This document shows positions 8,679-43,545 of a stretch of 64,000 nt of DNA, one piece after another (position 1 is the stretch's first letter; each line of letters starts with the position of its first letter). Location: the NCBI GenBank assembly GCA_038883775.1, contig JAVZLM010000008.1, positions 32,001-96,000 of the forward strand, given 5' to 3'. The DNA is from Candidatus Bathyarchaeia archaeon. Its GTDB lineage: Archaea; Thermoproteota; Bathyarchaeia; Bathyarchaeales; Bathycorpusculaceae. The notes under the pieces are model-generated. The model was not told the origin of the DNA. It made no database searches and saw nothing but the letters and a program-made list of their open reading frames with translations. The position numbers and the translations under genes were made by a program.

Positions 8679-10058
8679 TTGAGTGAAGCTCAATTTGAAA
8701 AACTTGAAAGCATAGTTGTTGACCTGATGCGACAAGCAAAGGTTCCTGGACTGAGTATATCAGTTGTTATTGATGGAAAACCAGCATATGCAAAAGGATT
8801 TGGCGCAAGAAACCTAGAAAAGAATTTACCCATGACTCCAGATACGCTTTGGGGAATAGCTTCAATTTCAAAGTCTTTCTGCGCTATGGCAGTAATGCAG
8901 CTTGTTGAAAATGGAAAAATAGACCTTAACGCTCCGGTGAGAAAATACATTAATTTTAAACTTGGTAAGAAAGGTAAACCTATAACAATTCACCATTTGC
9001 TTTGTCATTCTTCAGGCATACCTGAACTTGATGCCACAACAGCTGCAACGGTTAAAGAAGCGTTTATTCCCATGAGTAGCGAAGAAGACTTTCTGCGTTT
9101 TGTAAATAAGGCAAACACAGAGATTTTTAGTGATCCAGGTGAAATGTTCATGTATAACAATGATATGTACACTTGTCTTGGGCTTGTAGTGCAGAAGGTC
9201 GCAAAGATGAGATATGAAGATTACGTGAAAAAGAACATTTTGAAACCTCTTCAAATGAATAGATCAACATTCATAAAAGAAGAGTTCGAAAAAGACGACA
9301 ATATTATTACAGGCTATGTCCTTTCAAAAGATGGAAAATCCATGGAACTCAAGCCAATCAAGAATGATAGGCTAGATTACGCTTGTGGTGGCTTATACTC
9401 TTCAGTTCGCGAATTACAGAATTACATGATAATGTTAATGAATGGCGGGGAATTTAATGGACATCAACTTTTGGAGAAGTCATCGATTGAGAAAATGTGG
9501 ACGCCATACATAAAACCGCCAGCTGCGTATGCCCATGGTGATGGCGGTTACGGTTATGGATGGAGCATTGAAAAGGAATTCTTTGGCTATAAGCTTGTAC
9601 AACATGGCGGAAATATTCCAACGTCGGGAGGCTTCTTAGCCATGGTTCCAGAGAAAAAATTAGGGATTGCACTTGGACAGATTCCAAATCCTTCGATAAT
9701 TCATGAAGCAATCGTTCGAGGGCTTCTCGCAATACTTCTGGGAGAAGACATGGACAAGGCAGCTCCAATAATTGGGATACAAAAAAAGCTTGAACGTATA
9801 ATTGGGAAATACAAGACTTATGGAATGGTGCAGGGAGAAATTTCAATGGAAGATGGTATTCTCTACTTAACTCTCATTTTCGAAGGAGAAAGTAAACCAG
9901 TGAAACTTCCTCTCCTAATTAAAGACATCGAGAAACTTAAGTTCTCAATTCCAGCCTTGCTGCCTGAACATGAAATGGATGTCCAAATAATTACAGATGA
10001 AAAAACTGGAAAAGTTCACATGCAGATAGATCGATACTATTTTCACAAAATCGCCTAA
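8679..10058 (+). CDS. Serine hydrolase, beta-lactamase class C / peptidase S12 family
   Basis: SxxK (ASISKS), YxN (YNN), HGG, LLCHSSG. Confidence 0.9.
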   Translation: MSEAQFEKLESIVVDLMRQAKVPGLSISVVIDGKPAYAKGFGARNLEKNLPMTPDTLWGIASISKSFCAMAVMQLVENGKIDLNAPVRKYINFKLGKKGKPITIHHLLCHSSGIPELDATTAATVKEAFIPMSSEEDFLRFVNKANTEIFSDPGEMFMYNNDMYTCLGLVVQKVAKMRYEDYVKKNILKPLQMNRSTFIKEEFEKDDNIITGYVLSKDGKSMELKPIKNDRLDYACGGLYSSVRELQNYMIMLMNGGEFNGHQLLEKSSIEKMWTPYIKPPAAYAHGDGGYGYGWSIEKEFFGYKLVQHGGNIPTSGGFLAMVPEKKLGIALGQIPNPSIIHEAIVRGLLAILLGEDMDKAAPIIGIQKKLERIIGKYKTYGMVQGEISMEDGILYLTLIFEGESKPVKLPLLIKDIEKLKFSIPALLPEHEMDVQIITDEKTGKVHMQIDRYYFHKIA

Positions 10059-10160
10059 AACCATCCATCATTCAATAATAATTTAGAGAAAGCCTTGTTA
10101 AAGTAAAATAGCTATAAAAACGTGAATGAAATTTTATTGCCATACTCTTTTTTTACATTG

Positions 10161-29900: not shown

Positions 29901-31067
29901 TTGTGTTTGGATGTGTTTGATTACGTTTTAATTCACTATGGTGAGTTGGGGCTTAAAGGGTTAAATAAACCAAGTTTCGAGAGGAAATTGGTTGAAAATA
30001 TAGTTAAAGCTCTTGATGGAGTGGAATATGAGAAGATAAGGAAAATTCAGGGAAGAATTCTCTTAGAGCTTTCGGAAAAATCTGACTTGGGAAAAATTGA
30101 GGAAGCCCTCAAGAAGGTTTTTGGAATATCGTGGTTCGCCTTTTGTTTCACCACAGAAGCCAAACTAGACGCTATAAAACAGCTGCTGAATAAAAATTTC
30201 ATAATTGAGGCTGGCACAAAATTGAAAGTTTCAGCAAAAAGGGCGGATAAGACATTACCTTTCACGTCTATGGATGTAAACCGTGAATTAGGAACTTATC
30301 TCATCAAAAAATTCAATGCGCAAATTTCCTTGAAAGAACCGCAAAAAGAGATATTTGTTGAACTTGCAGAAGGAAAAGCCTATGTTTTTGACAAGAAAAT
30401 TAGGGGGTTATACGGTTTACCCGTTGGTGTTTCGGGAAAAGTTTTACACTTGTTGTCTGGCGGGATAGATTCGCCAGTGGCTGCATGGCTTCTAATGAAG
30501 AGGGGCTGCCAAACAGATTTTCTACATTTCCACGCCTTCCAAAATTTTGACGAGAAAAAGTGCCAAAAAATTTTGAAATTAGCAAAGGTTTTAGCCCAAT
30601 ACAACCCAAACCCAACGGCGTTTTTTGTTCCATTTTATCCCTTCGAAGCCGAAGCCGTTGAAGCACCAGCCAAGTATAGGCTTGTCCTATTCAGAAGGTT
30701 TATGGTTAGAGTTGCAGAGGAAATAGCCAAAAAACATGAAATAAAGGCTTTAGGAAGCGGCGAGAATCTGGCGCAGGTTTCATCCCAAACCTTAGAGAAT
30801 ATGGCCGTAATAAGCCAAGCAACAACGCTTCCAATACTAAGACCGTTGTTGACATATGAGAAGAATGAAACGGTTAATTTAGCAAAACAAATTGGAACTT
30901 TCGAAATTTCCATTCAGCCATATAAGGACTGTTGCACCCTATTTTTAACAAAGCATCCAGCAACAAAAGCCAAACTAGAAATTGTGGAAGCCTTTGAAAA
31001 GAAAATGAACCTAAACGAAGCCATAAAAGAAAGCCTCGAAAAAACCGAAACTGTAGAAATAAAGTAG
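29901..31067 (+). CDS. thiI: tRNA 4-thiouridine synthase ThiI
   Basis: YGELGLKG, THUMP domain, PP-loop LSGGIDS, QVSSQT, DCC. Confidence 0.93.
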   Translation: MCLDVFDYVLIHYGELGLKGLNKPSFERKLVENIVKALDGVEYEKIRKIQGRILLELSEKSDLGKIEEALKKVFGISWFAFCFTTEAKLDAIKQLLNKNFIIEAGTKLKVSAKRADKTLPFTSMDVNRELGTYLIKKFNAQISLKEPQKEIFVELAEGKAYVFDKKIRGLYGLPVGVSGKVLHLLSGGIDSPVAAWLLMKRGCQTDFLHFHAFQNFDEKKCQKILKLAKVLAQYNPNPTAFFVPFYPFEAEAVEAPAKYRLVLFRRFMVRVAEEIAKKHEIKALGSGENLAQVSSQTLENMAVISQATTLPILRPLLTYEKNETVNLAKQIGTFEISIQPYKDCCTLFLTKHPATKAKLEIVEAFEKKMNLNEAIKESLEKTETVEIK

Positions 31068-31567: not shown

Positions 31568-32467
31568 ATGTCCTCTGCTGAAATCGCCGTTCAAGTGTTC
31601 CGCACACTAGAAAATGAAGACATTAGAATACTGCAAGTCATAGAAGCAGCAAAAAGCAAACATGAATTTGTTCCAAAAGAAATTATAGCAAAATATGCAA
31701 AATTCAGCCCAGAAGAAACAGAATTTCGCCTAAACCGCCTAAACAAATTAAAACTCGTATACAGAATGAAGGGCGCCTATGTGGGCTACACGCTAAATTA
31801 TGCGGGCTACGATTGTTTAGCAATAAACGCCCTCGTAAAAGCTGGAATAATCGAAGCCTTCGGAAAACCTTTAGGCGTAGGCAAAGAAGCGGACGTTTAC
31901 GACGCCCTAAACCCAAAAGGCGAAAGAATAGCCGTAAAATTCCATAGACTGGGCAGAATAAGCTTTCGCCAAACAATAAGAAAAAGAGGCTACATAACTG
32001 AGCATGCCAACTGGCTTTATCAATCAAGACTTGCCGCAGAAAAGGAATTTGAAGCCTTAAAACTTGTCTTTCCATGCGGTGTTGCTGTTCCGAAACCCAT
32101 AAGCCAAAACCGCCACGTCCTAGTCATGGGAATGATTGAAGGCGCAGAACTGGCCGAATACAAGGAAATTCCAAAACCAGAAAAAATTCTCAAAGAAATA
32201 TTGCGTAATGTTAGAAAAGCCTATTTCAAAGCTGGTGTAATCCACGCAGACCTAAGCGAATACAATGTTCTCTTAAAGCCTAACATGCACATCCTAATCA
32301 TAGACTGGCCCCAATACGTTAGAAAAGAGCATCCTAATGCCCAACAACTTCTAACAAGGGATGTCAAGAACATTCTGGAATATTTTAAGCGCAAGCACAT
32401 GGTGAAAATAAAACTGAAAGAAGCCTTAGAATATGTGGCTGGTAAAAGCAGAATAATAAGCGCTTAA
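31568..32467 (+). CDS. rio2: RIO2-type Ser/Thr protein kinase
   Basis: N-terminal wHTH; GVGKEADVY, VKFHRLG, IHADLSEYN, IDWPQ. Confidence 0.92.
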   Translation: MSSAEIAVQVFRTLENEDIRILQVIEAAKSKHEFVPKEIIAKYAKFSPEETEFRLNRLNKLKLVYRMKGAYVGYTLNYAGYDCLAINALVKAGIIEAFGKPLGVGKEADVYDALNPKGERIAVKFHRLGRISFRQTIRKRGYITEHANWLYQSRLAAEKEFEALKLVFPCGVAVPKPISQNRHVLVMGMIEGAELAEYKEIPKPEKILKEILRNVRKAYFKAGVIHADLSEYNVLLKPNMHILIIDWPQYVRKEHPNAQQLLTRDVKNILEYFKRKHMVKIKLKEALEYVAGKSRIISA

Positions 32468-32697
32468 TGCACATCAAGTACAATGTAGAGAATGTTGTTT
32501 CCCCGCAACAAAACATTCCCATAATTCGTGATTAACTGGTCTTCTCTGCACTCCGTCGCTCCTTCCAAAAGAATATTCATGTGACCATCACATTTAATCA
32601 TCTTCCCCTTGTACTCGCATCCGTTTTTTAGCACTACGGCAATATTGGCATTTAACTGTTTAACAAGCACATTCAAAGGCTTCTTACTTGGCTCCAT
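32464..32697 (-). CDS. Sm/LSm-family RNA-binding protein
   Basis: Sm1 VVLKNG.EYKG...DGHMNILL; Sm2 LLRGNNILYI. Confidence 0.92.
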   Translation of the reverse strand: MEPSKKPLNVLVKQLNANIAVVLKNGCEYKGKMIKCDGHMNILLEGATECREDQLITNYGNVLLRGNNILYIVLDVH

Positions 32698-32749
32698 GAC
32701 AGCACCAGATGATTATTTACCTTAATACTCATATCCAAAACCACCAAAT

Positions 32750-32762
32750 ATAAAAGTTTTAT
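32750..32762. repeat. Left target-site duplication ATAAAAGTTTTAT
   Basis: Identical 13-mer at 38236-38248; both copies abut the terminal repeats. Confidence 0.8.
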
Positions 32763-32783
32763 CCCCAAACCCAAACCCAAACT
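32763..32783 (+). repeat. Left terminal inverted repeat C(CCCAAA)3CT
   Basis: CCCCAAACCCAAACCCAAACT read directly. Confidence 0.9.
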
Positions 32784-32845
32784 TTAAAAATTGAGACCGA
32801 AGAACCGTGCAGAAGTAGACCAAAAGCACTCAGAGAAAGCGCATA

Positions 32846-33190
32846 ATGTTTATATTACCCTCCCCGAGACATCGATTTATGGGCAACTTTAACGTTTTAT
32901 ATCTTAATCAGATTATTTGTATTGCAATTGCGTTGAATGAACATGGAATTTTGTTGAACCTTGATGATATGCAAATGGGTAGATTAAGTCCGAAACTTTT
33001 GGGGGACATAAACATCGTTCCAATATCTCGGATATATCCTATTCAATTAACTTTGGAAGTGAAAGAAAAAATGAAATCCATTGGTATTGTTGATTTTTGG
33101 GATTATTTATTTTACCAAGAAACAAAAATTAGACAAGAGAAGAAAGACAAAATTGGACGAAGGTCCAGGAAAAGACTTTGGATATTTTAA
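32846..33190 (+). CDS. Hypothetical protein (element)
   Basis: 114-aa ORF just inside the left TIR; no motif recognised. Confidence 0.4.
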   Translation: MFILPSPRHRFMGNFNVLYLNQIICIAIALNEHGILLNLDDMQMGRLSPKLLGDINIVPISRIYPIQLTLEVKEKMKSIGIVDFWDYLFYQETKIRQEKKDKIGRRSRKRLWIF

Positions 33191-33301
33191 ACGTAAACGT
33201 AAACATTGAAACCTTTTAGCATGAACGTTTTATTATGGATATTTTCCATAGAAAAGCATGGAAAAGGTATGGAAAAGAAACGTTCCTTTTTAATGTTTAG
33301 G

Positions 33302-33805
33302 TTAAAGTTCAGAACATTTTAAAATAGGTTCAGTTTTAAGTTTAGGTTTTTGTTCAAGTCTTCTAATAATGCCCTTGACGATTTTTCTGTAAGCCAAAAA
33401 CTCAGCAATTTGGTTCTCTTGAGAGCCATATCTAAACACAATGCGTGGCTCAGGCTTATCCTTCTTCGCAGAAACTCTGAGAGTGCTTCCTTCTTTAATT
33501 GCTTGCATAGTAAACCATTTCTGAAGATTTTTGTTCTGGGAGAGTAGGCTAACCCAAGCCATGATTTTAACGTTCTTTTCCCATGAAACCTTTTTGTCAA
33601 AAACGACATGATAACTGTTTTTTGAGCTTTTGAGAATAATGAACCCTTTTAATTTGAACCATCGCATTGTTCTCATCGCCCAATATTTGACGGTTCTAAA
33701 CTTGGTTTTATCAAAGTCAAGTTTAACCGTATTTTTGTCGGTTATTCCCATGATGAAAGGCAAATTGTTGTTTTCAGCTTTCGATTTCTTTTTCAATCCA
33801 TTCAC
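33302..33805 (-). CDS. Small archaeo-eukaryotic primase (AEP)-like protein
   Basis: Motif I hhhDhD (VKLDFD), motif II (KSSKNSYHVVF), downstream TLRV. No clear motif III Asp. Confidence 0.6.
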   Translation of the reverse strand: MNGLKKKSKAENNNLPFIMGITDKNTVKLDFDKTKFRTVKYWAMRTMRWFKLKGFIILKSSKNSYHVVFDKKVSWEKNVKIMAWVSLLSQNKNLQKWFTMQAIKEGSTLRVSAKKDKPEPRIVFRYGSQENQIAEFLAYRKIVKGIIRRLEQKPKLKTEPILKCSEL

Positions 33806-34085
33806 CTTCTAAGCCATATTTTTCTGGATTTTCTAAGAAGCTTTTAGCCGAAACATGAACAAACCCTTTTGGCATGAATTGATGCGCCTTAATCACGGCT
33901 TTGTAAAGCTCTTTTCCTTTACCATGAAACTCATATCTTCCACTTTGCTCAATTGTTTTGGTTCTCTTAGTCTTTTTCCAATACCTTTGACGTATTCCGT
34001 CTTTGCGTGTTTTCCAATATCTTTGACGCACATAAACCTTAGCTTCATAAGAACCGTAAACAGCTATCTTTTTCGTTTCAGCCAT
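33774..34085 (-). CDS. Basic hypothetical protein with duplicated RQRYWK
   Basis: VRQRYWKTRKDGIRQRYWKK; AGGTGA RBS before MAETKK. Confidence 0.65.
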   Translation of the reverse strand: MAETKKIAVYGSYEAKVYVRQRYWKTRKDGIRQRYWKKTKRTKTIEQSGRYEFHGKGKELYKAVIKAHQFMPKGFVHVSAKSFLENPEKYGLEGEWIEKEIES

Positions 34086-34109
34086 TAACATCACCTTTAT
34101 CTCTTAATC

Positions 34110-34592
34110 TTAAGGTAAAATCGCATTTTTTCTCGAAGATTTAGCCTTCTTTTTGTGCCATAAACCGTATTTATGTCTAATTTTCAAAATTGCTATAAAC
34201 AATTTGTCTAAAACTTCAATTGAAAGCTCTTGTGCTATCCATTTTTCCGTTTGCGGATTACTTACTGTAACAAATTTCGTAGCTGGGCATTTTTTATCGT
34301 GGAAAACCGTAATAAGCCATTTTTCAACCCAGAATTCAAACTCTCTCTCCAAATTTGGGTTTTTATCAAGACGCTTAAACGTAGCATCCTTAATCGTTCC
34401 AATCTTAACAGGCAAACCACTCTTAGTTTTCCCTTTAATATGCAAATCCTTAAACTCAATTGGAAAAGGTTGCGGAATCCAAGGCTCTGGAATCTTACTC
34501 TTAAGAGTAAAATACGTTAATATCCATTGTTTCTGCTCATCTTCACTCATACTTTTCCAATCCTTAGGAAAAACAACATCTTCAAAAGCCAC
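34110..34592 (-). CDS. Hypothetical protein (element)
   Basis: GTG start (MAFEDVVF) after AGGTG; operonic with neighbours. Confidence 0.6.
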   Translation of the reverse strand: MAFEDVVFPKDWKSMSEDEQKQWILTYFTLKSKIPEPWIPQPFPIEFKDLHIKGKTKSGLPVKIGTIKDATFKRLDKNPNLEREFEFWVEKWLITVFHDKKCPATKFVTVSNPQTEKWIAQELSIEVLDKLFIAILKIRHKYGLWHKKKAKSSRKNAILP

Positions 34593-34980
34593 ACTTACCC
34601 ACCTTTCCCATTCTCTCAAGAAGCCAAGCTTCAACACCACTAAGGAAATCAGAAAAAGAGAGATATTGAACCCATTGATAGCGAACTTTCAGTTTTTGCT
34701 TTAGCTTTTTTGTTGGAATATCACCTTCAAGCCACTCATTAACCCAAAACTGCCTTTCAGCATTAGGCATAGGCTCTAAAACCAAATAACGACGCTTTCG
34801 ATAGTCAAGCTCAATGGCTAAAACATGGTTGTCTCTCATATATCGCTTAAGCAAAGGCTTAATCTGTTCAACTGCATACCTTAACGTTTCTCGCTTATGT
34901 TTTGAAGTAGGCTTTACCTTATCAAAAGCTTCTTTTGTCAAACGTAAAGCTTTTAACTGACCTTCAACATTTATACTCAT
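34582..34980 (-). CDS. Hypothetical protein (element)
   Basis: ATG start MSINV; operonic. Confidence 0.6.
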   Translation of the reverse strand: MSINVEGQLKALRLTKEAFDKVKPTSKHKRETLRYAVEQIKPLLKRYMRDNHVLAIELDYRKRRYLVLEPMPNAERQFWVNEWLEGDIPTKKLKQKLKVRYQWVQYLSFSDFLSGVEAWLLERMGKVGKCGF

Positions 34981-35030
34981 ATCTAACCACATCCTTTTTC
35001 TTTTGTAAACTTTGAAAGTCAGTGAAGACG

Positions 35031-35549
35031 TTAGTCTTCTTCTGTTTCTTCGCTTTCTTCAGTTGAAAACCAAGCGTATTGTTCTTCTGAAGGTTCTAAA
35101 GGCTCAAATTTCTCTGCAAACTCTTCAAGCGAAGGCTTAATGAAATAGCCTTCATACCCTATTTGCAGTTTTTCTTTGACTTTTCTCCATTGTTCAGGCG
35201 TTAAGTCCTTAAGCTTCCATCCCTTTTCGCTAAACTTAGCAATGAAACCGTCTTCGCCATCTATCTCAAAACCACCATAGTAAGTTGTGCATTCATTGAG
35301 TAATGCATCAAGTTCTTTATCTGGAATAACAGCCTCTGGATTAGGTTCAGCGGGTTTTTCTATCTCTTCAAAGTATTTTCTGAGAGCCTCACGCACTATT
35401 GAGCCTCTGCTTACGTCTCTTTCGTAGGCTAAATCCTTCAGTTTTTTGAGCCATTTTTCTGGAAGCATTATTTGAACACGCACTAAAGACTCATCGCTAT
35501 CCAAGTCGGGAACTTTTTTCATTTCCAAATCTTCAATTTTTTCGGACAT
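35031..35549 (-). CDS. Ribbon-helix-helix (CopG-like) regulator with acidic C-terminal domain
   Basis: VRVQIMLPEKWLKKLKDLA...VSRGSIVREALRKY; GAGG RBS. Confidence 0.8.
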   Translation of the reverse strand: MSEKIEDLEMKKVPDLDSDESLVRVQIMLPEKWLKKLKDLAYERDVSRGSIVREALRKYFEEIEKPAEPNPEAVIPDKELDALLNECTTYYGGFEIDGEDGFIAKFSEKGWKLKDLTPEQWRKVKEKLQIGYEGYFIKPSLEEFAEKFEPLEPSEEQYAWFSTEESEETEED

Positions 35550-35601
35550 ACTTATCTACCTCATAAATTACCTAATTACCGAAAGATTAATAAACCCTAC
35601 C

Positions 35602-35615
35602 GTAACTATAGTTAC
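35602..35615. promoter_or_regulatory. Perfect palindrome between divergent regulators (putative operator)
   Basis: GTAACTATAGTTAC, with outer CCCTA...TAGGG arms. Confidence 0.55.
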
Positions 35616-35629
35616 CTTAGGGATACGTA

Positions 35630-36166
35630 ATGAAAGAAAGAATGGGAGAAAAATCGGTTCAAATAGGCAAAAGAAACAAAGCCAAAATTATAGCTGAACT
35701 AATCAAAAATCCAATGACATTCACGGAATTGAAAGAAACCTTAGACTTCTCAGCAAAAACTCTGATGTTTCATTTAAGAGATTTGGAAAATGAAGGTTTA
35801 ATACGACGAATTTTAGAAGGAAAATCCATTCTTTATGATGTCATAAAACCGAAAAGCGTCATTGAGCTTAGAAAACAATTCCTTTCAGAACTTCTAAACT
35901 TAAAAGCCTACGATGTAGCTTTAAACGAAAAGACAAAAGCATTATACTATCAATTTTTGAAAACTCTCAAAGAAAGCATTGAAAAGCCAGAACCAGAAGC
36001 AAAAACCACAAAAATCATAGCTAAAACCATTGAAATTCCAAAAGGATTCAAAGGAACAATAAAACAAAAGATAACCAATATGTATGAAAAACCAGAGCTA
36101 AAAGAAACCGAAACCGAACAGTTGAAACCTTATTCCATGAAAAGAAAAAAGAAGGTGAGAACATGA
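35630..36166 (+). CDS. Winged HTH (ArsR-like) regulator
   Basis: PMTFTELKETLDFSAKTLMFHLRDLENEGLIRR; ATGA overlap with cas1. Confidence 0.82.
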   Translation: MKERMGEKSVQIGKRNKAKIIAELIKNPMTFTELKETLDFSAKTLMFHLRDLENEGLIRRILEGKSILYDVIKPKSVIELRKQFLSELLNLKAYDVALNEKTKALYYQFLKTLKESIEKPEPEAKTTKIIAKTIEIPKGFKGTIKQKITNMYEKPELKETETEQLKPYSMKRKKKVRT

Positions 36167-37248
36167 GAGCAAAGCTTCAGAGAATCGTTATAGATAATTG
36201 TGGCTCGTATTTAGGAATGCAGAAAGGCTGTTTTGTTGTTAAGGATAGAGAAGGTAATGTTCAAAGGTTTCCAATGTTTGAGAATGAAATCGGCGAAATT
36301 GTCTTGACAGGTGGGAACTTTGTTAGCACAAGTGTTTTAGCGTCTTGTGGTTTCTGGGATATTCCAATAACTATTATGACAAAGAACTTTAAGCCTATTG
36401 CTGTTCTTAAAAGCTTAGATGATGATAGCCATGTTAAGACACGCATTGCTCAATATGAAGCGTTAAAGAATGGAAAAGGCATAACCATAGCCAAAACCAT
36501 TGTAGAGTCAAAAATTGAAAGCCAAAACATAATCCTCAAAAGATATTCACTCAAACAACTTGACATTATGACTTTGAAAGCCAAAATTGAAAAGTTAGAA
36601 TCCAATAACCTTAAAGACTTGAGAAAAAGGCTCTTACCGATAGAAGGCAAAGCTTCAGAACACTATTTCCATGAAATCTTTAAGCTGTTTCCAAAAGCCA
36701 TTAGAACAGAACAAAGAAAAACTTGGAAGGCTTATGATAGTTTAAACAACACTTTCAACTTAGCCTATACGCTTTTGAAGTTTAGAGTTCACTCTGCAAT
36801 TTTGAAGGCTCACTTAGAACCTTACTTAGGGTTCATGCATTCAGAACAACATGGTAAGCCTTCTTTGGTTTGCGATTTTTGTGAGCTTTACCGCTACATA
36901 ATAGACTCATTCCTAATTGACTTCTCGCAAAATCTAAAACCCAAAGATTTCATTGTTAAAACTGAATGGTATTCCACGAATCGTTTAGGCAAAAGGCAAG
37001 TTTTGAACCGTGAAAAGACTAAGGAATTAACTGAAAATCTTAATCGGTTCTTTGAGACAAAAGTGCCAATAAGCAGAATAAGATACGGTTTTAAACAGCA
37101 AATTGAAACATTGATTAATGAAGAGGCTTTGCTTTTTGCGAAGTATCTTCGAGACGAAAGGGAACAATGGATTCCACGCATCATTCAACTAAACCCTTTT
37201 TTCCATCCACGTTTTATGCGTATGAGAAAAAACTTTTTATCTTTTTAA
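36163..37248 (+). CDS. cas1: Solo Cas1 endonuclease/integrase (putative casposase)
   Basis: N-terminal GSYLG beta domain; RIAQY; catalytic E (IEGKAS), NxxxNxxY, H (YLGFMH), D/E (LVCDFCELYR). Confidence 0.93.
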   Translation: MRAKLQRIVIDNCGSYLGMQKGCFVVKDREGNVQRFPMFENEIGEIVLTGGNFVSTSVLASCGFWDIPITIMTKNFKPIAVLKSLDDDSHVKTRIAQYEALKNGKGITIAKTIVESKIESQNIILKRYSLKQLDIMTLKAKIEKLESNNLKDLRKRLLPIEGKASEHYFHEIFKLFPKAIRTEQRKTWKAYDSLNNTFNLAYTLLKFRVHSAILKAHLEPYLGFMHSEQHGKPSLVCDFCELYRYIIDSFLIDFSQNLKPKDFIVKTEWYSTNRLGKRQVLNREKTKELTENLNRFFETKVPISRIRYGFKQQIETLINEEALLFAKYLRDEREQWIPRIIQLNPFFHPRFMRMRKNFLSF

Positions 37249-37276
37249 TCGAAAGGATACTGTGAAGAGATGAGTA

Positions 37277-38185
37277 TTGGTGGTAAATAAACTGGCAATC
37301 GCAGGAAGCATTGTTGCTTTTATTAGTTTGCTTTTCCCGTGGTGGTCTCTCGAAGCTAGTATTGTTGGAGTGTCCCCAGTAACTTTCCACGTATATCCTG
37401 GATGGTTCAGTGGTAATCTAAATGATGTGGTTAATGTTTTTCGTAAACTTGACATAACTCTCGGCGTAAATTTTTTCGAAGAGTGCGTAGGTGCATTAGC
37501 AACGTTTGGTATACTATTTTGTTCAGGGATTCTCTTTGCATTGATTGGAGCTTTTATCAGAAGTAACATGGGAAGGGGAATTATTGCACTCGGGTTTTTC
37601 TTAATCTTATGTGGTATTTATGGTTTTTGTTACACATGGAACAAACTATTTTACCTATTACAAACTCCTATTTCATTTTCACATTCTGAATTGTCACCAT
37701 TATTTTCTGTTACGTGGGGTTGGTCATATGGTCTCTATATCGCCATCTTTGCTTTCCTTTTATTGTTGGTGAGTGTTGCATTTCATCCAGTAGAAGTTAA
37801 AGCAAAAGAAGAAGTAGAAATTGAAAAAAAGCCTTCAGAGCAAAAACATATATTCAATAGGACCAAAAAAAGGACCTATTTAGAGTCGATAATGGAAGCA
37901 CGAGCAAGGGAGATGGGTCCACCTCCTCCTCCACCTCCTCCTCTCCTATGTAGATTAAGGCTTCATCGGTGGAGGTATTATGGTCAAGATGTTGTGGTTA
38001 CTGTTCGAGAATACGTAAAGGTTGGAGACGCACGTATACCAGTTAATGAAGGAGTGAAGCTCATTAATAATAAAAGAAAATGTGCACGATGTGGTATAAA
38101 ACAAGAGGCAAACATTTTTACTAACGAAGATGGAACACTCTCTATGAGAGGATGGAGAGAGTCGAATAATTCGCAAGGTGATTAG
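37277..38185 (+). CDS. Membrane protein (4 TM) with poly-Pro linker and a C-terminal C-x4-H...CxxC module (cargo)
   Basis: LLFPWW...WGWSYGLY TM domain; PPPPPPPPLLCRLRLHRW...KCARCG. Confidence 0.7.
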   Translation: MVVNKLAIAGSIVAFISLLFPWWSLEASIVGVSPVTFHVYPGWFSGNLNDVVNVFRKLDITLGVNFFEECVGALATFGILFCSGILFALIGAFIRSNMGRGIIALGFFLILCGIYGFCYTWNKLFYLLQTPISFSHSELSPLFSVTWGWSYGLYIAIFAFLLLLVSVAFHPVEVKAKEEVEIEKKPSEQKHIFNRTKKRTYLESIMEARAREMGPPPPPPPPLLCRLRLHRWRYYGQDVVVTVREYVKVGDARIPVNEGVKLINNKRKCARCGIKQEANIFTNEDGTLSMRGWRESNNSQGD

Positions 38186-38208
38186 TCAGTCTTGCACACC
38201 CCCTCGTT

Positions 38209-38235
38209 AGTTTGGGTTTGGGTTTGGGTTTGGGA
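38209..38235 (-). repeat. Right terminal inverted repeat AG(TTTGGG)4A
   Basis: Reverse complement of the left end with one extra hexamer. Confidence 0.9.
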
Positions 38236-38248
38236 ATAAAAGTTTTAT
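38236..38248. repeat. Right target-site duplication ATAAAAGTTTTAT
   Basis: Identical to 32750-32762. Confidence 0.8.
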
Positions 38249-38423
38249 GAAAAACTATTCCGAAAAATAAAGCAAATTAATTCGTCTTTCCAAATTCTAA
38301 AGCTTTTTCCAAAATAAATCGCTTTTTCGCAAAGACTTATTTAGAAAACTCAAATTTAAAGGAGAAAATGTTCCCAAAGAATTAAAACGAGAAAGTTTCC
38401 TATTGCATAATGGAGGATAAAAC

Positions 38424-39947
38424 ATGCATGAAGTGCACGTTGACGGAGAAACCTTAACCATCGAAGACGTTGTAAAAGTTGCAAGAGAAAACGCAAAAGT
38501 CGTAATATTAGAAAAAGTAAAAGAGAAAGTGAAGAGAAGCCGAGAAGTTTTGGAAAAACTCGTCAAAGAAGGACAAATAATTTACGGCGTAAACACCGGC
38601 TTCGGCGCTTTAAGCAACAAAATCATCACGCCCGAAGAAAACAGAAAACTGCAAACAAACCTCATCAGAAGCCACTCCACATGCGTTGGAAAAAACTTAA
38701 GCACAGAAATTGTCCGCGCCTTAATGCTTTTACGAGCGAATACGCTTGCTAAAGGATATTCTGGCATACGCTTAGAAACACTTGAAACCATAGTAGAAAT
38801 GCTAAACAAGCGGGTACACCCAATAATCCCAGCAAAAGGCTCTGTTGGAGCAAGCGGCGACCTAGCCCCACTATCACACATGAGCTTGGTGCTTATAGGT
38901 GAAGGAAAAGCCGAATACAAAGGCAAAACGATGAATGGAAAAGAGGCAATGGAAAAAGCCAACATAAAACCCATCCAACTAGAATTTAAAGAGGGCATAG
39001 CCCTAAACAACGGCACCCAACTAATGACAGCCATAGCTGCACTAACGGTTTATGACGCTGAAAACCTAATTAAAACAGCGGAAACTGCAGCAGCTTTAAG
39101 TCTCGAAGCATTGAATGGCGTTTCCGACGCCTTCCACGAAAAAATCCACAAAGTAAGACCACACAATGGACAAGCAATAACGGCAAAAAACATAAGAGAA
39201 ATGATTATCGGAAGCCAACTCGTCCAAACTGGAAAAGAAGCCTTTGAAAGGTTGAAGCATCCCCACGACCCCTACAGCCTAAGATGCATACCACAAATTT
39301 TGGGCGCCGCAAGAGATGCCACCGCCTACGCAAGAAGGGTTGTGGAAATTGAAATCAACTCCGCCACAGACAATCCACTAATTTTTCCAGAAGAAGAACT
39401 CTGCCTTTCAGGAGGAAACTTCCACGGGCAACCCATATCGCTTGCCATGGACATTCTCGGAATAGCCCTAACCATAATCGGCAACCTCTCAGAAAGAAGA
39501 ACAGCAAGACTCCTCGACGAAAAACTCAACAATGGCTTACCAGCCTTCTTAATCCCACCAGAGGCAAAAACAGGATTAAACAGTGGCTTAATGACCCTAC
39601 AATATACAGCAGCCGCCCTAGCCTCAGAAAACAAGGTTTTAGCGCATCCAGCATGCGTAGACTCAATTCCAACATCAGCAAACTTCGAAGACTTCGTAAG
39701 CATGGGAACAACAGCAGCCCAAAAAGCCATGCAAATCCTAGAAAACACAGAGTATATAATAGCCATAGAACTTCTCTGCGCAGTCCAAGCAATAGACCTC
39801 CGAGGACCAGAAAAACTCGGAAAAGAAACCAAAAAAGCCTATTCAGCCATCAGAAAGATGGTGCCTATGCTTAAAGAAGATAGGGTATTAAGCGAAGACA
39901 TAGAAAAAATTAAACGTGCTATGTATAATCTTTTAAGGCTTGAATAA
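38424..39947 (+). CDS. hutH: Histidine ammonia-lyase
   Basis: YGVNTGFG, LIRSH, MIO triad GASGDL, DPYSLRC, GGNFHG. Confidence 0.93.
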   Translation: MHEVHVDGETLTIEDVVKVARENAKVVILEKVKEKVKRSREVLEKLVKEGQIIYGVNTGFGALSNKIITPEENRKLQTNLIRSHSTCVGKNLSTEIVRALMLLRANTLAKGYSGIRLETLETIVEMLNKRVHPIIPAKGSVGASGDLAPLSHMSLVLIGEGKAEYKGKTMNGKEAMEKANIKPIQLEFKEGIALNNGTQLMTAIAALTVYDAENLIKTAETAAALSLEALNGVSDAFHEKIHKVRPHNGQAITAKNIREMIIGSQLVQTGKEAFERLKHPHDPYSLRCIPQILGAARDATAYARRVVEIEINSATDNPLIFPEEELCLSGGNFHGQPISLAMDILGIALTIIGNLSERRTARLLDEKLNNGLPAFLIPPEAKTGLNSGLMTLQYTAAALASENKVLAHPACVDSIPTSANFEDFVSMGTTAAQKAMQILENTEYIIAIELLCAVQAIDLRGPEKLGKETKKAYSAIRKMVPMLKEDRVLSEDIEKIKRAMYNLLRLE

Positions 39948-43448: not shown

Positions 43449-43545
43449 TGGCGGGCCCGACGGGAATTGAACCCGTGACCCCCGGGTTTCTCTGCGTTTT
43501 TTGGCTTAAAAGCCCGGTGCTCTATCCTTACTGAGCTACGGGCCC
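43449..43545 (-). tRNA. tRNA-Lys(TTT) with 19-nt intron, CCA encoded
   Basis: GGGCCCG...CCGGG-CTTTTA[AGCCAAAAAACGCAGAGAA]A-CCCGG...TTCAATT...CGGGCCC-GCCA; BHB motif fits. Confidence 0.92.

Follow-up and report, generated by a model that had tools for sequence, protein, structure and literature searches.

A small protein resembling the catalytic domain of archaeo-eukaryotic primases (AEPs) is encoded together with a solo Cas1 in a transposon-like element of 5,473 bp. The element occupies positions 32763-38235 of the stretch analysed here, 64,000 nucleotides from Candidatus Bathyarchaeia archaeon (assembly GCA_038883775.1, contig JAVZLM010000008.1, positions 32,001 to 96,000; referred to as the window). 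The AEP-like open reading frame (ORF) is a real gene under conservation and is tightly linked to Cas1, to terminal inverted repeats (TIRs) and to a second small gene, o106. Together these define a polymerase-less Cas1 transposon family of Bathyarchaeia that is previously undescribed. Model-based evidence suggests that the AEP-like protein probably works as a heterodimer with o106. In our preferred reading, which we consider evenly poised between right and wrong, the pair would act as a minimal AEP-type nucleotidyltransferase of two subunits and serve the Cas1 element in priming, gap filling or end maintenance. Catalysis by the AEP-like protein, the substrates it would use and a connection with the hexamer repeats at the element ends are points that we infer.

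The AEP-like gene (33302..33805, reverse strand) starts with GTG and encodes 167 aa. The start is ambiguous by three codons, since database copies begin at residue 4, giving 164-167 aa. The translation (...TVKLDFD...GFIILKSSKNSYHVVFD...EGSTLRVSAKKDKPEPR...) contains the stretches V27-K-L-D30-F-D32, F55-IILKSSKNSYHVVFD70 and S107-T-L-R110-V. This agrees with an earlier sequence-only reading of the DNA, which had noticed VKLDFD, SxxxxH and STLRV in AEP order within a short ORF, and hundreds of homologs keep these motifs. A word-indexed protein search, by design restricted to proteins of 91-293 aa, returned 348 homologs at E<=1e-3, and a phmmer scan of 1.84 billion cluster representatives (50% identity) returned 360, of which 214 had E<=1e-10. 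The homologs are about 130-250 aa long and derive nearly all from Bathyarchaeia and metagenomes, the named sources being Bathyarchaeota/Bathyarchaeia and one bin labelled Aenigmatarchaeota. Intact copies number in the hundreds, with identities down to about 30% and column-specific conservation. The gene is single-copy in the source assembly, and 56 pattern matches among IMG/VR viral contigs included 0 relatives. The sequence-only reading had also described the protein as free of a helicase or PriCT domain. This is borne out by Pfam, which gives nothing but a sub-threshold AEP-like match, and by the lack of longer fused relatives among 8,000 scored candidates, which is weak evidence.

Conservation was counted in 270 listed homologs aligned to the family profile, considering only sequences with a residue in the respective column. 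All 11 key columns are kept in at least 94%: D30 (209/213) and D32 (211/214); S60 (238/244), S61 (237/244) and H66 (236/251); Q101 (255/258) and K104 (246/256); and T108 (244/251), R110 (247/251), K114 (242/246) and K117 (235/244). The pair R/K121-I122 is retained in 224/241, and the residue two before H66 varies between N, S, C and H. Y65 is kept in 234/251 members of this main family and is not conserved in the divergent family alignment. D23 was considered as a substitute third acid and dropped, being D in 167/205 and not conserved in the divergent alignment; it is invariant in the close alignment and falls within the predicted o106 interface.

AEPs are characterized by motif I (hhhDhD/E), motif II (sxH) and motif III (hD/E), and by an "Arg-hydrophobic" motif IV downstream of motif III, which is essential in PolpTN2 (PMC5862659; this and all other papers cited are drawn on in excerpt). 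Motif I is represented by VKLDFD in the predicted strand 26-32, and motif II by S64-Y65-H66, preceded by S60-S61. This arrangement matches the motif II extension of the S-2L PrimPol, T112..K115..H118 (PMC8065100). Motif II His is replaced by Gln, Tyr, Arg or Lys in some AEP families, and the RepE/RepS family carries Gln instead of the motif III Asp (PMC5862659). In the main family, motif III has no counterpart in the form of a conserved acid. Q101 sits nine residues before R110-V111, which is followed by K114 and K117; judged from spacing and by analogy with RepE/RepS, Q101 would be a candidate substitute for the motif III acid. R110-V111 and R/K121-I122 both fit the published description of motif IV (PMC5862659), and either might occupy the flange strand.

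The only curated family touched by the protein is Pfam PF24387 ("AEP-like", "Archaeo-eukaryotic primase 1D-like"; E 3.6e-5, 24 bits, profile positions 47-127 of 133). The match recurs in 48/51 aligned family members at E<=0.1 (best 2.2e-5), and two close homologs carry a precomputed PF24387.2 label. A protein language-model look-up (Atlas) placed a mostly bacterial "primase 1D family protein" cluster at rank 26 with a score of 0.93. PHROGs and NCBIfam gave no match, Pfam gave no PF09250 match in the protein or its aligned relatives, and a literature search for PF24387 or primase 1D turned up nothing relevant.

Structural comparison appears more informative for AEP likeness than this thin sequence evidence. 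An AlphaFold2 model based on a 51-sequence alignment (pLDDT 87.6, pTM 0.78) has the topology beta-beta-alpha-beta-beta-alpha-alpha-beta-beta-alpha. When it was structurally aligned to 48,161 PDB representatives, AEP catalytic domains made up 15/25 best matches. These comprise 12 named primases or Prim-Pols and 3 chains of Pol alpha-primase complexes, which we take to be the small subunit. The best match of the full scan is HP0184 (2ATZ; Z 7.4, root-mean-square deviation (rmsd) 3.9, 112 residues aligned). Further matches are the Pseudomonas LigD polymerase 2FAO (Z 7.2, rmsd 4.0, 128 residues), AsfvPrimPol 8IQB (Z 6.7), human PrimPol 7JK1 (Z 5.9) and the Prim-Pol domain of the CRISPR-associated Prim-Pol (CAPP; 7NQD, 7NQE; Z 5.7-5.8), and Prim-PolC, PriS and RepB' are also among the leading ones. 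In a second look, for which the top 1000 of Foldseek were re-aligned and 50 rows listed, 34/50 rows are AEPs, including the M. tuberculosis LigD polymerase with dGTP/Mn (2IRY; Z 7.4, rmsd 2.9, 109 residues). A library of viral models yielded matches to two uncharacterised proteins, both from filamentous viruses of archaea, with E 1.6e-4 and 5.6e-4. HP0184 represents a small AEP subfamily of 176 aa and was solved with bound nucleotide (PMC8065100).

More distant relatives of the gene reside beside Cas1 proteins of the element type. At least three further AEP-like subfamilies, unannotated and without an above-threshold Pfam match, show the motif skeletons LDYD...TSEFGRH...LRxxxKG, WDLE/WDLD...TSDxExSYR...ATLRxSNK and LDVD/LDAD...TITIR/FITERVNxKN (loci L161, L164, L171, L172, L176, L160 and L169, the subfamily C alignment; L151, L158, L155 and L178; L148 and L170). 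Among 18 divergent Cas1-linked relatives, Pfam found 3 weak PF24387 matches only (E 0.012-0.092). The first Asp of motif I is kept and the second residue is acidic (D or E) in all four Cas1-linked subfamilies; motif II mostly has His or Arg, and the Arg of TLR is present in all rows but one. Profile comparison of the main family with subfamily C (WDLE) by hhalign gave a probability of 94.6% (E 6.6e-8, 97 columns), by which the two are to be regarded as homologous at the sequence level. Subfamily C has 366 database relatives, all unannotated, with the motifs WDLE / TSDxExSYR / LLDTxxLDW / ATLRxSNK. Its two invariant Asp (7/7), located after motif II and before the TLR motif, make it plausible that the ancestor had a third acid.

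The putative partner gene, o106 (33774..34094, reverse strand), lies upstream, and the two genes share 32 nt, the end of o106 running into the start of the AEP-like frame. The two adjoin in 67/71 metagenome loci with at least 400 bp of upstream sequence. The 106-aa product is highly basic and carries a tandemly duplicated QRYWK motif (alignment of 31). Modelled alone, it forms a long beta-hairpin and a helix (pLDDT 65.5), for which no fold match with Z>=5 was found (best Z 4.3). The predicted complex of o106 with the AEP-like protein scored 0.80 (runs 0.80, 0.81, 0.30) vs 0.32 for the best control. The 0.80 mark was reached by 58/80 solved complexes and 2/110 mismatched pairs, a calibration that is roughly valid here, own alignments having been used. 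The complex runs agree in at least 58% of contacts, with a partner pLDDT of at least 54. In the predicted interface, o106 strand 7-14 pairs with strand 16-25 of the AEP-like protein, and K104, T108 and the C-terminal helix take part as well; the model thus places o106 next to the conserved cluster.

The sequence-only reading had located the gene inside a Cas1 element, and the boundaries of this element are now apparent. A left TIR, CCCCAAACCCAAACCCAAAC (CCCC(AAACCC)2AAAC; 32763..32782, forward strand, inverted-repeat search), and a right TIR, (GTTTGG)4G + A (38210..38235, forward strand, repeat searches), of 20-25 nt form inverted (CCCAAA)n/(TTTGGG)n termini. They are flanked by an exact 13-bp direct repeat, the target-site duplication (TSD) ATAAAAGTTTTAT, at 32750..32762 and 38236..38248. 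The 9-mer CCCAAACCC matches the window 6 times vs 0.51 expected, 5 times at the element ends and once outside the element at 30605, which confirms the earlier remark that the element has no internal tract of this kind. Cas1 (36163..37248, forward strand, 361 aa; Pfam Cas_Cas1 4.2e-51, TIGR00287 1.2e-50) is the sole recombinase candidate and lies outside a CRISPR locus: no Cas2, CRISPR genes or array were found among its neighbours. Likewise, searches with Pfam, PHROGs and NCBIfam found no polymerase, Cas2 or other cas family among the 9 element ORFs.

The element family recurs in two sets of loci, namely 28 loci from species-representative genomes, nearly all of Bathyarchaeia, and the best 80 of 362 relatives' loci from metagenomes. 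Both were found via the AEP-like protein, which biases the counts that follow. Of the 28 genome loci, 20 contain (CCCAAA)n or (TTTGGG)n tracts with two or more units. Both ends, with matching AT-rich duplications of 11-13 bp, are present in 7 further genome loci (elements of 5.3-9.1 kb), so that 8 complete elements with the same ends, including that of the window, are available in this set. The number of hexamer repeats ranges from 2 to more than 6 units and is often unequal between the two ends of one element. Junctions of the form right end/TSD/left end (L004:9237-9275, L019:6118-6150, L021:9065-9100, L024:220-252) represent tandem insertions at one site, in which the target word acts like an inter-insert repeat. 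The smallest Cas1 element observed is a complete one of 1,966 bp on a metagenome contig of 2,203 bp (L037, 119-2084), with GAAAAATTTTTAT as its perfect 13-bp duplication. Its coding content is limited to Cas1 (~347 aa aligned) and the AEP-like protein, both intact; o106 and regulators are absent.

A near-full Cas1 lies upstream of the AEP-like gene, always divergently, in 23/80 metagenome loci, and Cas1 is present in 9/9 of those with at least 5 kb of upstream sequence. Genome loci with equally long upstream sequence contain a full Cas1 in 6/21 cases, any Cas1 piece in 9/21 and no Cas1 in 12/21. The Cas1-less loci L007, L008, L009, L012, L014 and L015 contain no other integrase, only host genes and short remnants. 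Linkage was also assessed starting from Cas1. The window Cas1 matches 73/401 Bathyarchaeial genomes at E<=1e-20, and its identities within Bathyarchaeia are bimodal, with one class of at least 44% (many full and fragmentary copies) and another of 27-33%, which is presumed from sequence to be CRISPR-type. The regions of +/-7 kb around 37 near-full-length Cas1 matches were extracted, leaving out Cas1 fragments and the 27-33% class; without the window's own copy, 36 stretches remain. An AEP-like relative is found in 20/36 at E<=1e-3 (13 at <1e-10 and 7 at 1e-5 to 1e-3), and with an iterated profile 25/36 contain a member of the small-protein superfamily. The other 11/36 are without a relative, and six of them come from contigs that measure 4.5-8.3 kb. 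Searching 34 ORFs from six AEP-less Cas1 loci brought up neither a polymerase nor a primase family. In the open literature, supplements and subscription journals being outside the search, neither Cas1 elements that lack PolB and carry an AEP nor the AEP-like family were found to be described.

Several of these results weigh against the AEP assignment or the role proposed for the protein. On the side of linkage, these are the discovery bias, the Cas1-less genome loci and the Cas1 stretches without a relative. On the side of sequence, the PF24387 match of 24 bits stays below the gathering cut-off of 27 bits, and 401 genomes of the phylum contain no PF24387 member above that cut-off. Profile searches of PDB sequences yielded chance matches only (SRP54, myosin VI, cyclophilin) and no AEP, and hhalign of the divergent family profile against five Prim-Pol (PF09250) domains from four Bathyarchaeial genomes gave a probability of 0.3%. 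Between H66 and R110, no acidic residue is conserved in the 270 listed homologs: E105 is E in 106/255, and position 70 is divided between D (143/255) and N (106/255), so that the earlier statement that a motif III Asp is not evident still stands, and in tested AEPs motifs I-III are essential for catalysis (PMC5862659). Subfamily C has Arg in place of the motif II His, subfamily D has lost this His, and the active-site positions of the conserved residues follow from order and spacing only. On the side of structure, Foldseek found no PDB match for the model at E<=1e-3, and every structural Z is <8, a range that possibly reflects a common arrangement alone. Polyomavirus origin-binding domains (OBDs) score Z 6.0-6.9, statistically tied with AEPs, and Rep of adeno-associated virus (AAV) scores Z 5.2-5.7.

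The AEP, OBD and Rep folds are reportedly related, and such a tie would then be expected. Between the tied folds, it is the motif pattern that, on sequence grounds, would tip the balance toward AEPs. The AEP reading advanced earlier is consequently upheld in part. In its favour, though none of these is strong, are the sub-threshold Pfam match, the top structural matches and the conservation of motifs I, II and Arg-hydrophobic even in divergent subfamilies; it is left short by the Z values below 8 with the OBD tie, the missing above-threshold family, the hhalign null result and the absent motif III acid. The proposed check by AlphaFold and Foldseek was similarly divided, with a confident model and an AEP-led structural alignment on one side and no Foldseek hit on the other. 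The outcomes named at the time as fatal to the reading, a non-AEP fold or unconserved DxD and His residues, are not what was found.

If the protein is an enzyme, it would consist essentially of the catalytic RRM/palm-like (RNA recognition motif) module alone, without zinc finger, PriCT or helicase. The AEP-like/o106 pair would then be the DNA-synthesis module of the PolB-less Cas1 family, replacing the family-B polymerase of casposons. Its chemistry would be a metal-dependent nucleotidyl transfer, with D30 and D32 binding metals and S60/S61/H66, R110, K114 and K117 holding the incoming nucleotide, while the missing third acid might be replaced by Q101 or by a residue of the partner. Two uses would then be likely, separately or together. 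Once the element has been excised or copied, the pair might start new DNA at its G-rich hexamer-repeat ends or lengthen these, and/or it might fill the 13-nt single-strand gaps left on either side after Cas1 has joined the 3' ends of the element to the target. In the latter case, the joining of 3' ends and the filling of the 13-nt gaps would result in the target duplication. Synthesis of the hexamer repeats by the enzyme, a speculative use, would be compatible with the variable repeat numbers. We hold DNA synthesis to be no better than an even prospect because the third acid is missing and catalysis is inferred only. A more inclusive proposal would unite these elements as a fifth kind of Cas1 transposon, whose ~2-kb minimal form consists of Cas1 and the smallest known AEP-type enzyme. 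The latter, clamped to DNA by the beta-hairpin of o106, would replicate the element or repair its junctions. Through slippage on the repeat or repeated rounds of priming, it would also maintain the telomere-like (TTTGGG)n 3' ends. Active repeat maintenance would explain why repeat numbers differ between elements and between ends; as a whole, we regard this proposal as unlikely.

In the main alternative, the protein would make no DNA itself. A non-catalytic DNA-binding protein with an AEP/OBD-like RRM fold could, together with o106, recognise the hexamer ends or an internal origin, whereupon Cas1 or the host replisome would be recruited. The OBD of simian virus 40 large T, the DNA-binding domain of papillomavirus E1 and RepE-type initiators provide models for such recruitment. 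The absence of the motif III acid and of zinc finger, PriCT and helicase domains would be accounted for, as would a motif II His that is not universal across subfamilies and the tie with polyomavirus OBDs (over 94-105 residues). Furthermore, the highly basic o106 with its long modelled beta-hairpin has a shape suited to DNA binding, and polymerases are available from the host genome. However, all four subfamilies keep a D-x-D/D-x-E pair and, with it, a near-invariant Arg and Lys; this combination marks a site for metal and nucleotide and is not known from OBDs. AEP matches also extend over a larger part of the model (109-131 residues) than those to OBDs, and subfamily C has its extra invariant Asp where motif III is expected. 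Taken together, we consider pure DNA binding doubtful, though not to be dismissed.

The protein might also be a metal-dependent nuclease or end-processing factor of the transposon, which would cut the 5' strands at excision, leaving the 3' ends to Cas1, or act on the repeat ends as a Rep/HUH-like nickase. In Tn7, TnsA stands beside TnsB in a comparable manner, and a two-gene element of Cas1 and the AEP-like protein suggests that the latter supplies a transposition step beyond Cas1. HUH endonucleases such as AAV Rep share the fold, and Y65, well conserved in the main family, could be considered as their Tyr. Yet the His-hydrophobic-His motif that, with the catalytic Tyr, marks HUH (Rep/relaxase) endonucleases is absent: the sequence reads Y65-H66-V-V with no second His, subfamily C has Ser-Tyr/Phe-Arg instead, and Y65 is unconserved in the divergent alignment. 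The best structural matches are moreover polymerases and primases, not nucleases, and such a function appears quite improbable. Hardly any credence is due to the idea that the ORF is non-functional, with chance motifs in a spurious or decaying frame. Several genome relatives do lie in short Cas1-less remnants beside host genes, and some copies are split by frameshifts (L146, L162, L166). The hundreds of intact homologs found in the searches, the column-specific conservation, the confident fold and the conserved synteny with o106 and Cas1 nevertheless refute it.

The closest known parallels to an enzymatic AEP-like protein are small stand-alone AEP catalytic modules of the HP0184 type and the PrimPol-PV1 supergroup (RepB', S-2L PrimPol, PolpTN2). 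The alignment with 2ATZ extends over 112 residues and covers residues 40-174 of its 176-residue chain, and motif I DxD, motif II sxH and, further along, an Arg-hydrophobic pair follow one another as in the published description (PMC5862659). Unlike these proteins, the window protein is archaeal (Bathyarchaeia) and Cas1-linked; it has no detectable sequence similarity to them, is about 25-30 residues shorter and lacks the motif III Asp. RepE/RepS is the only AEP family described in the excerpted text as having Gln for the motif III Asp, but its members are bacterial and contain fused PriCT-1 and helix-turn-helix (HTH) domains (PMC5862659); the equivalence with Q101 would follow from spacing. 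PF24387 is approached from below its cut-off, and the related Atlas cluster is mostly bacterial.

With regard to function, CAPPs are the nearest precedent, being AEP-class proteins genetically coupled to Cas1. They bind Cas1 and prime, displace strands and fill gaps on Cas1 integration intermediates (PMC8211822). In contrast to the 167-aa window protein in its TIR/TSD-bounded transposon, CAPPs are larger, multidomain proteins of type III CRISPR operons with Cas2. With regard to the element, the likeness to casposons is one of architecture and gene content, Cas1 itself having been compared by identity within Bathyarchaeia: Cas1 is the sole recombinase candidate, TIRs and small HTH genes are present, the target duplication is of similar size (13 bp here), and one site is used repeatedly and in tandem. 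As far as the excerpted literature goes, all described casposons (families 1-4) span about 8-20 kb and have a gene for a family-B DNA polymerase (PMC9939771, PMC9966878). The window family is without PolB, measures about 2-9 kb, has telomere-like hexamer ends and carries the AEP-like protein instead.

The presence of PolB in every described casposon underlies the "self-synthesizing transposon" model and the scenario for the origin of CRISPR adaptation (PMC9939771, PMC9966878). A PolB-less Cas1 family that is abundant in Bathyarchaeia and carries an AEP-like protein of 130-220 aa with a small partner, once with Cas1 alone, bears on both and should be of high interest to those who study mobile elements or how CRISPR arose. 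With its two or three proteins, it is a very small system in which Cas1-mediated transposition could be reconstituted, and it touches the open question of the polymerase by which gaps are filled once Cas1 has integrated its substrate. If active, the AEP-like protein would define the minimal catalytic AEP core and would test whether an AEP can work with Gln or a partner-supplied residue for the third acid. The family is also a case, from Archaea, of mobile DNA that ends in telomere-like hexamer repeats. Should the more inclusive proposal be true, the CAPP-type partnership of Cas1 and Prim-Pol could descend from such transposons and not from PolB casposons.

The element is flanked by host genes for LSm and a histidine ammonia-lyase-like protein. 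The AEP-like gene lies 520 bp from the left end, and from that end the gene order is a non-conserved ORF, the AEP-like gene, o106, two ORFs, a ribbon-helix-helix (RHH) gene, a winged-helix gene, Cas1 and a 302-aa ORF. The two ORFs behind o106 are variably present: the 176-aa ORF (34110..34640, reverse strand) was found by tblastn in 8/80 metagenome loci and the 136-aa ORF (34582..34992, reverse strand) in 18/80. The RHH protein (CopG-like, 172 aa; 35031..35549, reverse strand; Pfam RHH_1 1.6e-5, above cut-off) recurs in 23/80 metagenome loci and the winged-helix protein (ArsR-like, 178 aa; 35630..36166, forward strand; HTH_5 1.9e-7) in 16/80; the stop of the latter gene overlaps the Cas1 start. 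The 302-aa ORF (37277..38185, forward strand; ORF list) contains a poly-Pro run, hydrophobic segments and, at the C-terminus, a CxxC. Related loci yielded no relative of it, and it is probably cargo. An imperfect 30-nt inverted repeat (33182-33317; 77% complementary, 76 nt apart) containing AAACGTAAACGTAAAC follows directly on the stop codon of the AEP-like gene, on the side of the left end, and could be a terminator or binding site. A 24-nt palindrome (35586-35631) in the 80-bp divergent intergenic region between the RHH and winged-helix-Cas1 genes is likely the operator of the two transcription units of the element.

The duplicated target was compared for the window, L006, L010, L013, L021, L024, L026 and L037 and is always an AT-rich near-palindrome of 11-13 bp (ATAAAAGTTTTAT, ATAAAAATTAAAT, TTAAAATTTAA, GAAAAATTTTTAT and others). 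In the window, the target word resembles a TATA-like promoter word of archaea, and the LSm gene starts ~55-65 nt downstream of it. Based on these two observations, element-type Cas1 may target promoter-like palindromes. One of the AEP-less Cas1 loci (L157) has a tyrosine-recombinase (Phage_integrase) gene at 9138-10076 that adjoins Cas1, which suggests an unrelated element co-integrated at the same place. The only other Cas1 match in the source genome is an 89-aa fragment (C28:4808-5074) that is 89% identical to residues 257-345 of the window Cas1; it may stem from another copy of the element that is broken or was left unassembled.

Hints on the population, weak and obtained from assembled contigs only (90% likeness, window 31800-39200), came from two sequencing runs. 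In run X3, from another study, host flanks have a depth of 72-377 and the element interior of 0-32, and three contigs leave the window sequence directly after the left TIR at 32782. In run X1, the likely source, one contig of depth 63.6 joins 32706 to 38443, with 38 letters on the shorter side. These contigs suggest presence/absence variation at the element site, with which they fit without demonstrating excision. Elsewhere in the window, ARAGORN reports a 97-nt tRNA-like gene at 43449-43545, with no anticodon assigned, which may be an intron-containing archaeal tRNA.

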